Shown in pieces: positions 1,420-2,314 of a stretch of DNA of 64,000 nucleotides (position 1 is its first letter; every line of letters starts with the position of its first letter). The notes below the pieces were generated by a model that worked only from the letters and a program-made list of their open reading frames with translations, had not been told where the DNA came from and ran no database searches. The translations under genes were made by a program, and so were the position numbers. This DNA comes from Heteronotia binoei (lineage: Eukaryota), in NCBI RefSeq assembly GCF_032191835.1, contig NC_083237.1, forward strand, positions 39,494,001 to 39,558,000, in the 5' to 3' direction.

Positions 1420-1626
1420 ATGGCCTGTGTTTGCTGCTTTTGGTTTCCCGACTCTGTTGAACCATCATTTTATGAAGAAATGAATGCTGTGGAGGCCGAC
1501 GGGGTTCCTGCTTTGGAACAGGCTGTTTATGAGGATATGAACCCTGTGGAGACCGATGGGAGGGAAGCTGATGCCTGTGAGGAACCTGTTTATGAGGAGA
1601 TGATGCATCTCTCACCCAAAAGCTGA
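1420..1626 (+). CDS. Maverick accessory ORF, 68 aa: MACVCCFW N-terminus and three acidic YE(E/D)M repeats; probably exon 1 of a longer spliced gene
   Basis: ATG at 1420 with G at +4 and a CCAAT box at ~1353. Internal ~60-nt repeats encode FYEEMN, VYEDMN and VYEEMM. Removing one A from the A4 run at ~1618-1621 joins it to the acidic frame that ends at the 1697 splice donor. Confidence 0.6.
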   Translation: MACVCCFWFPDSVEPSFYEEMNAVEADGVPALEQAVYEDMNPVETDGREADACEEPVYEEMMHLSPKS

Positions 1627-2314
1627 GGGAAAAGATGAAGCCGGGGATGAGGAAGAAGAGGAATGGGCGCAGTGTGTTCAGAATTGGGTAGAGGATGTAA
1701 GTAGCACAAAGAGAACGAGGATGCTGTTGATAGCAGGGGTGGAAATATTTAGAATTGTGTTTTTTCTCTTGCAGATGGAGGATGAAGGATTGTATTGGAG
1801 ACTGATTGCTCAAATTATGGAATTGGCGCATAGTAGAGTGGGAACAAGCTGTTGTAAATTCTGTACAACGATAACATATTGTCAGGAGAGTAGTTGTGTG
1901 AAAAACGCGACACACAAAAAGACGGGGCAGGATNNNNNNNNNNNNNNNNNNNNNNNNNNNNNNNNNNNNNNNNNNNNNNNNNNNNNNNNNNNNNNNNNNN
2001 NNNNNNNNNNNNNNNNNNNNNNNNNNNNNNNNNNNNNNNNNNNNNNNNNNNNNNNNNNNNNNNNNTATTACCTAGAGATGGTAAGTAGCGGGGGGATGTG
2101 AGAAAGATCACAACGGTGTGGGGGACATGATAAACATCGTTGTTTTTTTCTCTTGCAGAACGACTATGACGATGTGAGGTGGGAACAGTTTATACAAATT
2201 GTGGAAGTTGCGCATGAGAAAGTGAATCCTTCATGCTGTGATTATTGTGGAGAAATAGCTCAATTACAGCAGGGAAACCCTAGCCACACAATTTTCAGTG
2301 TGTGGTTTTTATAA
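1622..2314 (+). CDS. Predicted spliced accessory gene: exons ..1696, 1775..2080 (contains the gap), 2159..2314, with a duplicated W-x4-QI-x-E-x-AH-x2-V-x2-SCC-x2-C module
   Basis: Two phase-0 introns of exactly 78 nt (1697-1774 and 2081-2158), both GTAAGTAGC...TTTTTTCTCTTGCAG. The exons after them share 13 identical residues in 37, in the same register from the acceptor. Confidence 0.65.
1934..2064. other. Assembly gap (N run)
   Basis: 131 N. Confidence 1.

Follow-up and report, generated by a model that had tools for sequence, protein, structure and literature searches.

According to our analysis, the region that begins at position 1420 of the window (the whole 64,000-nt stretch of Heteronotia binoei DNA considered here) forms the 5' half, now broken, of an accessory gene that has five exons and is carried by a Maverick element, and we hold with high confidence that this is a real gene with spliced introns. 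As to its role, we propose, at about even chances in our estimate, that the spliced product is a lipid-anchored adaptor predicted to recruit host PI3K through YxxM motifs.

The region lies inside a gecko Maverick/adintovirus that occupies positions 629-12409. Like other Maverick/Polinton elements, it is bounded by a 6-bp target-site duplication (623-628, with the identical hexamer at 12410-12415) and by long terminal inverted repeats of ~700 nt, of which the left one (629-1316, plus strand) is 95.4% identical to 11700-12418 inverted, and the right one occupies 11700-12409 on the minus strand. Pfam finds both a protein-primed DNA polymerase B (3734-7960, minus; PF03175, E 1.5e-41) and a packaging ATPase (3063-3792, minus), the latter matched in two frames and through weak matches alone (IVa2, A32, E about 0.01). 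Integrase, capsid genes and protease, deleted from the window copy, are present in a sibling of greater length (integrase as rve, E 1.3e-14; protease as Peptidase_C5, E 0.002), where the capsid, pw and pz labels follow from the gene order in PMC8097293 alone. Maverick membership, presumed by an earlier sequence-only reading of this DNA, is thus supported by the repeats, the target-site duplication, the polymerase and the sibling integrase. A 72-nt direct repeat is present within each terminal inverted repeat (window 992-1063 and 1162-1230), and the element begins and ends with AGAAGA..TCTTCT (629-634 and 12404-12409), AGT or AG repeats being the common type according to the available part of PMC8097293. 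Elsewhere in the window, judged from translations, there are olfactory-receptor-like ORFs, some of them broken (20136-21122, 37261-38302, 47659-48699, 51267-52301 and 53814-54782), a Gypsy-like gag-pol element (25867-30898, minus) and a LINE-like element (57652-62012, plus).

In sibling copies the accessory gene sits between the left terminal repeat and the integrase and has five exons separated by four phase-0 GT-AG introns of 73-89 nt. The window copy retains, all on the plus strand, exon 1 (1420-1696, 277 nt), which encodes a Cys-rich N-terminus, three YxxM motifs, an acidic run and the first Cys of module 1; exon 2 (1775-2080), with the CC-x2-C half of module 1, a Glu-rich linker and the first Cys of module 2; and a remnant of exon 3 (2159-2259), which holds the CC-x2-C half of module 2 and is cut by a deletion. 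Introns 1 (1697-1774) and 2 (2081-2158) are phase 0 and GT-AG, and their junctions are shared with the RefSeq model P0001. The tandem YxxM motifs (1471-1602, plus; YEEM at 1471-1482, YEDM at 1528-1539 and YEEM at 1591-1602) are conserved in other geckos. Exon 1, which carries three stops in the window copy, can be read through in 13 of 16 other copies measured against L005, and this bears out the suggestion that the modules are fused to the YEEM region; that an A4 run should really be read as A3 proved wrong, the frame break near 1624 being a short deletion private to the window copy (19 copies aligned to L005) and lying outside the A run. Duplication of exon-intron units as the way in which a spliced gene was built here, also proposed earlier, is supported by the sibling anatomy.

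The two introns had been described as both 78 nt long, phase 0, starting GTAAGTAGC and ending TTTTTTCTCTTGCAG, and we confirm this together with the two module translations as they were quoted. They are twins in length, but the equal length is chance, since among 17 copies with both introns aligned the window copy alone is 78/78; their interiors differ, as stated, and are unrelated (an equally good alignment arose in 899 of 1000 shuffles). Across 19 copies aligned to the reference L005, intron 1 measures 77-87 nt, intron 2 73-83, intron 3 77-89 and intron 4 84-86. Absence of GT/AG sites from other copies had been named as a ground for rejecting the introns; intron 1 starts GTAAGT in 16 of the 17 copies that hold it, and intron 2 starts GT in 19 of 19, with the acceptor broken in one. 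In the youngest copies intron 1 can be read through in frame, and introns 2-4 carry stops or frame shifts in the siblings. As in spliceosomal genes, GT-AG sites are conserved and the frame is kept in exons and free in introns: of 52 indels in exons 26 preserve the reading frame, compared with 11 of the 62 in introns (p=0.0003). Retention of intron 1 as a conserved isoform was rejected, its lengths not all being multiples of three, and so was an antisense ORF at 1322-1933 as a gene, open in 2 of 19 copies.

Gene models, which are automatic predictions in both RefSeq and GenBank, agree with this plan. The RefSeq gecko model XP_060099311.1 (415 aa) uses the same four junctions, exon 3 of one sibling is identical to part of a Heteronotia binoei RefSeq model, and Gekko kuhli models in GenBank have the same exon plan; several models start downstream of the Cys cluster or of the first YEEM. 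A TATA-like site lies about 30 nt ahead of the first ATG, so that the Cys cluster could sit too near the cap. Among the 19 sibling loci L002-L020, 16 have the integrase after the gene inside the flank that was retrieved, counting a match to the integrase start or body; in L035, a second lineage, the modules are followed by an integrase with 56% identity. Two near-identical gene copies (L009 and L010, C3 at about 70.48 Mb) face each other about 3 kb apart, an arrangement that suggests inverted duplication.

How the window copy came to be truncated is visible from its siblings. The genome DNA search gave 169 candidates, 40 of which were scored, and in all 39 scored copies other than this one the match breaks off at query base 190-197, near position 2259 of the window. 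Compared with a longer sibling, the window copy has suffered two deletions, with a 72-nt piece of the major capsid gene left between them (2258-2329, plus; 95.8% to L043:5993-6064, within a 438-codon ORF) and the truncated 5' part of pz after them (2328-2784, minus), both genes being labelled by gene order. This copy no longer has exons 4-5 or the genes for integrase, minor capsid, pw and protease. The sequence-only reading had also expected that the N gap might hide more units. In the genome's own record (L001) exon 2 consists of 102 open codons with 43 Glu, one CC-x2-C and no donor, so the N stretch hides no extra module; further units do exist, but downstream, in the stretch that is missing from this copy. 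The window copy is a non-autonomous relic from which at most a short N-terminal peptide would be made.

The repeated unit is a module of about 50 residues with the pattern C-x28/29/32-CC-x2-C. It had been read as a possible H-x6-CC-x2-C domain, and this we do not uphold: modules 3 and 4 have no His, and it is a Cys of the preceding exon that is conserved as the candidate for a fourth ligand. Of the 84 introns followed by a CC-x2-C exon, 78 have this Cys eight codons ahead of their donor (many of the copies being near-identical), and it is present at all four paralogous positions as well as in older families. Each module is thus split by its own intron, at one place. Q37, listed earlier among the residues identical between the two window modules, is not part of the module, since exon 3 is cut at 2259 and is followed by capsid DNA, which encodes both this residue and the stop at 2314.

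Conservation at the protein level, as it had been claimed, cannot be drawn from the two window modules themselves: they share 12 identical residues in 33 codons, just 2 of them with a different codon, and pS of 0.40 versus pN of 0.44 gives no synonymous excess. It can be drawn from comparison across copies and across species. Differences shared between two copy groups comprise 19 synonymous and 32 non-synonymous changes (pN/pS 0.39), with p 0.024 for a kappa of 2 and 0.074 for a kappa of 4; as significance is lost when transitions are strongly favoured, purifying selection on the accessory gene is likely but modest, and the integrase gives a stronger signal (pN/pS 0.14).

A module profile was searched against 1.84 billion representative proteins and returned 22 matches, 13 of them family members and 9 long repeat proteins, which were dropped as matching the CxxC end alone (4 of the 9 were examined). 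Named members come from five gecko genera, Heteronotia, Gekko, Paroedura, Sphaerodactylus and Eublepharis, with several per genome; neither the profile search nor a word search found a named relative outside geckos, though copies in masked repeats of other genomes would go unannotated. These relatives, known from proteins alone, carry [IVT]YxxM motifs and acidic linkers besides their modules, of which there are one to four. One family member, P0016 (ENA), stands on a 16.7-kb contig, the size of a whole Maverick. Ten representative proteins contain 17 YxxM versus 2.4 in 5000 shuffles (maximum 12), a count in which 2 of the 17 are incidental and motifs related by descent are not independent. Y and M are retained, and positions +1 and +2 vary (YEEM, YEDM, YVEM, YEKM), the exceptions being YEET and YEEI. 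The usual form is a tandem acidic [IV]YEEM, often after an N-terminal Cys cluster; such clusters are found in Sphaerodactylus, Paroedura, Eublepharis, Gekko and the window copy, some of them behind Met-Gly or basic residues. As in activators of class IA PI3K, the YxxM motifs lie in an acidic, predicted disordered region.

Polyomavirus middle T is a YxxM activator of PI3K that is spliced, membrane-anchored and provided with Cys clusters, and we suggest that the gecko product may work along similar lines. The host spliceosome would remove the four short phase-0 introns, each splice joining a Cys-bearing helix to its CC-x2-C half. The N-terminal Cys cluster would be S-acylated and serve as a membrane anchor, a Src-type kinase would phosphorylate the tyrosines of the acidic [IV]YEEM, and p85 SH2 domains would bind the phosphorylated YEEM and thereby recruit PI3K, so that AKT signalling may favour survival or growth of the cell where the element replicates. 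Two to four small four-cysteine modules, stabilised by metal, may act as further docking units, and their symmetric phase-0 form would allow duplication, and recombination between Maverick lineages, to alter how many modules there are and in what order. There is a precedent in alphavirus nsP3, which, according to the part of PMC5805360 available to us, binds p85 through YXXM and requires its membrane anchor.

The same spliced gene can be read with its centre of gravity in the Cys modules, as a zinc protein of the E1A/E6/E7 kind (an 'Oncoid'), soluble or nuclear, in which YEEM is secondary, another SH2 site or a kinase decoy. No other part of the protein is as well conserved or as often duplicated as the modules, and their spacing of ~29 residues ahead of CxxC resembles that of E6/E7. 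Adintovirus Oncoids combine acidic CK2 sites with paired CXXC (PMC8502044). Yet Oncoids are defined by LxCxE/CR1 together with paired CXXC (PMC8502044 and bioRxiv 2024.03.25.586562, as far as their available parts go), and LxCxE is absent from the Heteronotia, Gekko and Paroedura proteins and occurs in 7 of 38 family proteins at two unrelated spots, none of them conserved. Each module has a single CxxC and two further Cys, although two modules could pair. Furthermore, Oncoids typically lie upstream of PolB in the part of PMC8502044 seen, whereas the left-end gene stands beside the integrase. Searches of Pfam, of PDB sequences and of folds gave no significant match between the module and the papillomavirus E6/E7 or small-t zinc domains. 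We regard this alternative to the PI3K adaptor as unlikely, if worth keeping in mind.

Another possibility, quite unlikely in our opinion, is that a gecko host gene was captured as cargo and serves the host, or itself, in a way that has nothing to do with how the element replicates. Every named relative is from geckos, and in nematode Mavericks host cargo with introns occupies the corresponding slot, from left repeat to integrase (bioRxiv 2022.07.12.499685). Against this, the 1.84 billion representatives and the word search contain no non-gecko or single-copy host relative, and those older copies that were retrieved are in decay and have DNA in common with the integrase-linked lineage or the main family. 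Sampling of the own genome covered 20 loci from the DNA search and 20 stretches around 146 protein matches.

The older Maverick-derived families in the genome (L021-L034, L035) have the Cys units in another order. Their DNA is 72-85% identical to that of the main family, and their ends recur in the lineage that holds the 56%-identical integrase. They have one module of the form C-x-C-x2-C, and their last exon differs. This points to exon shuffling between Maverick lineages, made possible, we infer, by the symmetric phase-0 units.

With regard to structure, the modules of the proposed adaptor are probably metal-binding. A model of the single terminal module with its tail has pLDDT 66, with 62 residues at pLDDT 70-90, and shows short helices around the Cys loop. 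A fold search with the single module gave no Foldseek match at E<=0.001, the best, VIA, reaching Z 3.9 with rmsd 4.3 over 59 residues; the whole-protein AlphaFold model is poor (pLDDT 41.5), and fold searches with it came back empty. Pfam gave nothing above cut-off on exons and gene models, the PDB sequence search gave E of at least 0.33 for the half-module profile and no match for the full-module profile, ESM Atlas yielded no usable match, and scans of viral and metagenome contigs produced 58 and 137 pattern matches, none confirmed. The absence of a fold match is not proof of a new fold. The cysteines might instead be sites of acylation, disulfides or an iron-sulfur centre, so that within the same adaptor each module would serve for membrane tethering or redox chemistry; an adjacent CC is awkward for one zinc, and in a few modules the first Cys is replaced. 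We find this very unlikely, as the fixed four-Cys pattern in a predicted compact unit fits a structural metal site.

One public RNA run contains the left-end gene (share 0.45), and runs X2 and X3 contain next to nothing. Among 8 of 19 records, the one run that holds the gene showed no exon joint, and one of its contigs bridges intron 3 unspliced at a depth of about 6; this run also covers non-coding parts of the element, which means that DNA or pre-mRNA is present. The gene seems little expressed in the RNA sample. At the right end of the element there is a second multi-exon accessory gene (window 9740-10130, minus; donors 10089, 9899 and 9744), conserved in L042 and L044, with an acidic product that contains what we take to be a stretch resembling a SUMO-interacting motif. 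Its GT-AG intron at 9817-9899 (minus) is exactly skipped in an RNA contig of depth 33.9 (one contig, short side 30 letters, likeness 85), so the introns of this element can be spliced. That the introns of the left-end gene go unused and its gene models are prediction artefacts on a decayed repeat is extremely improbable, for the unspliced contig without joints and the open intron 1 of the youngest copies are set against frame-neutral indels confined to introns, fixed GT/AG, the Cys at -8, stops or frame shifts within introns 2-4, and the DNA or pre-mRNA that the holder run's cover of non-coding parts reveals. Splicing of the left-end gene is, on its anatomy and gene models, very probable.

The result bears on the question whether vertebrate Mavericks act on the host cell as viruses; their accessory regions are almost unannotated. 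The accessory gene described here exists in many copies and is open to testing, its host-signalling motif is clear and its repeated domain unclassified, and a second spliced gene, supported by RNA, lies at the other end of the element; the left-end gene also offers a clean case of phase-0 exon shuffling within a mobile element, and a set of 'uncharacterized' gecko gene models may be explained as Maverick genes. We tentatively suggest, with somewhat less assurance than the adaptor function itself, that gecko Mavericks have kept across five genera a spliced, membrane-tethered, middle-T-like activator of PI3K with a new metal-binding fold, whose intron-cut units are reshuffled between lineages. 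If this is true, vertebrate Mavericks would manipulate host signalling and use splicing as small DNA tumour viruses do, and a class of accessory genes would have been missed because annotation took intronless ORFs only.

One publication (PMC11957031) reportedly deals with intron-generating transposons in dsDNA viruses. The parts of PMC11296320 and PMC12220804 available to us concern self-splicing introns only, and the accessible text on anole Polintons (PMC3014272) gives them eight ORFs and never uses the word intron. We found no description of the left-end gene in the literature, though supplementary gene maps (PMC8502044, bioRxiv 2024.03.25.586562) may name the region, and the review PMC6720190, in the portion seen, leaves the motifs of middle T and E6/E7 outside its coverage. 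Vertebrate Mavericks as described by Barreat and Katzourakis (2021; PMC8097293, available part) share with the gecko element the 6-bp target-site duplication, long terminal inverted repeats, two converging core modules and accessory regions on both flanks; no introns were observed there in genes of intact elements, whereas both gecko accessory regions hold multi-exon genes.

With alphavirus nsP3, which works only when membrane-anchored (PMC5805360, in part), the gecko product shares YxxM in an acidic disordered region. Unlike in nsP3 or middle T, the gecko anchor would be N-terminal acylation, and the likeness is one of analogy alone, no sequence or fold link having been found. Adintovirus Oncoids have in common with it acidic tracts, CK2-type sites, cysteine motifs and a presumed action on the host (PMC8502044, available part), and differ from it in that the gecko gene has YxxM and modules of a single C plus CC-x2-C, is spliced and lies next to the integrase. 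The cargo of nematode Mavericks, wasp proteases and krma kinases, also has genes that bear introns and occupy the slot between left TIR and integrase, and, in the accessible part of bioRxiv 2022.07.12.499685, consists of enzymes of recognisable host families moved between species. Unlike these, the gecko product is a motif-and-module protein of no known family, grown by internal exon duplication, and the left-end gene is a new form of Maverick cargo with an unclassified repeated domain.
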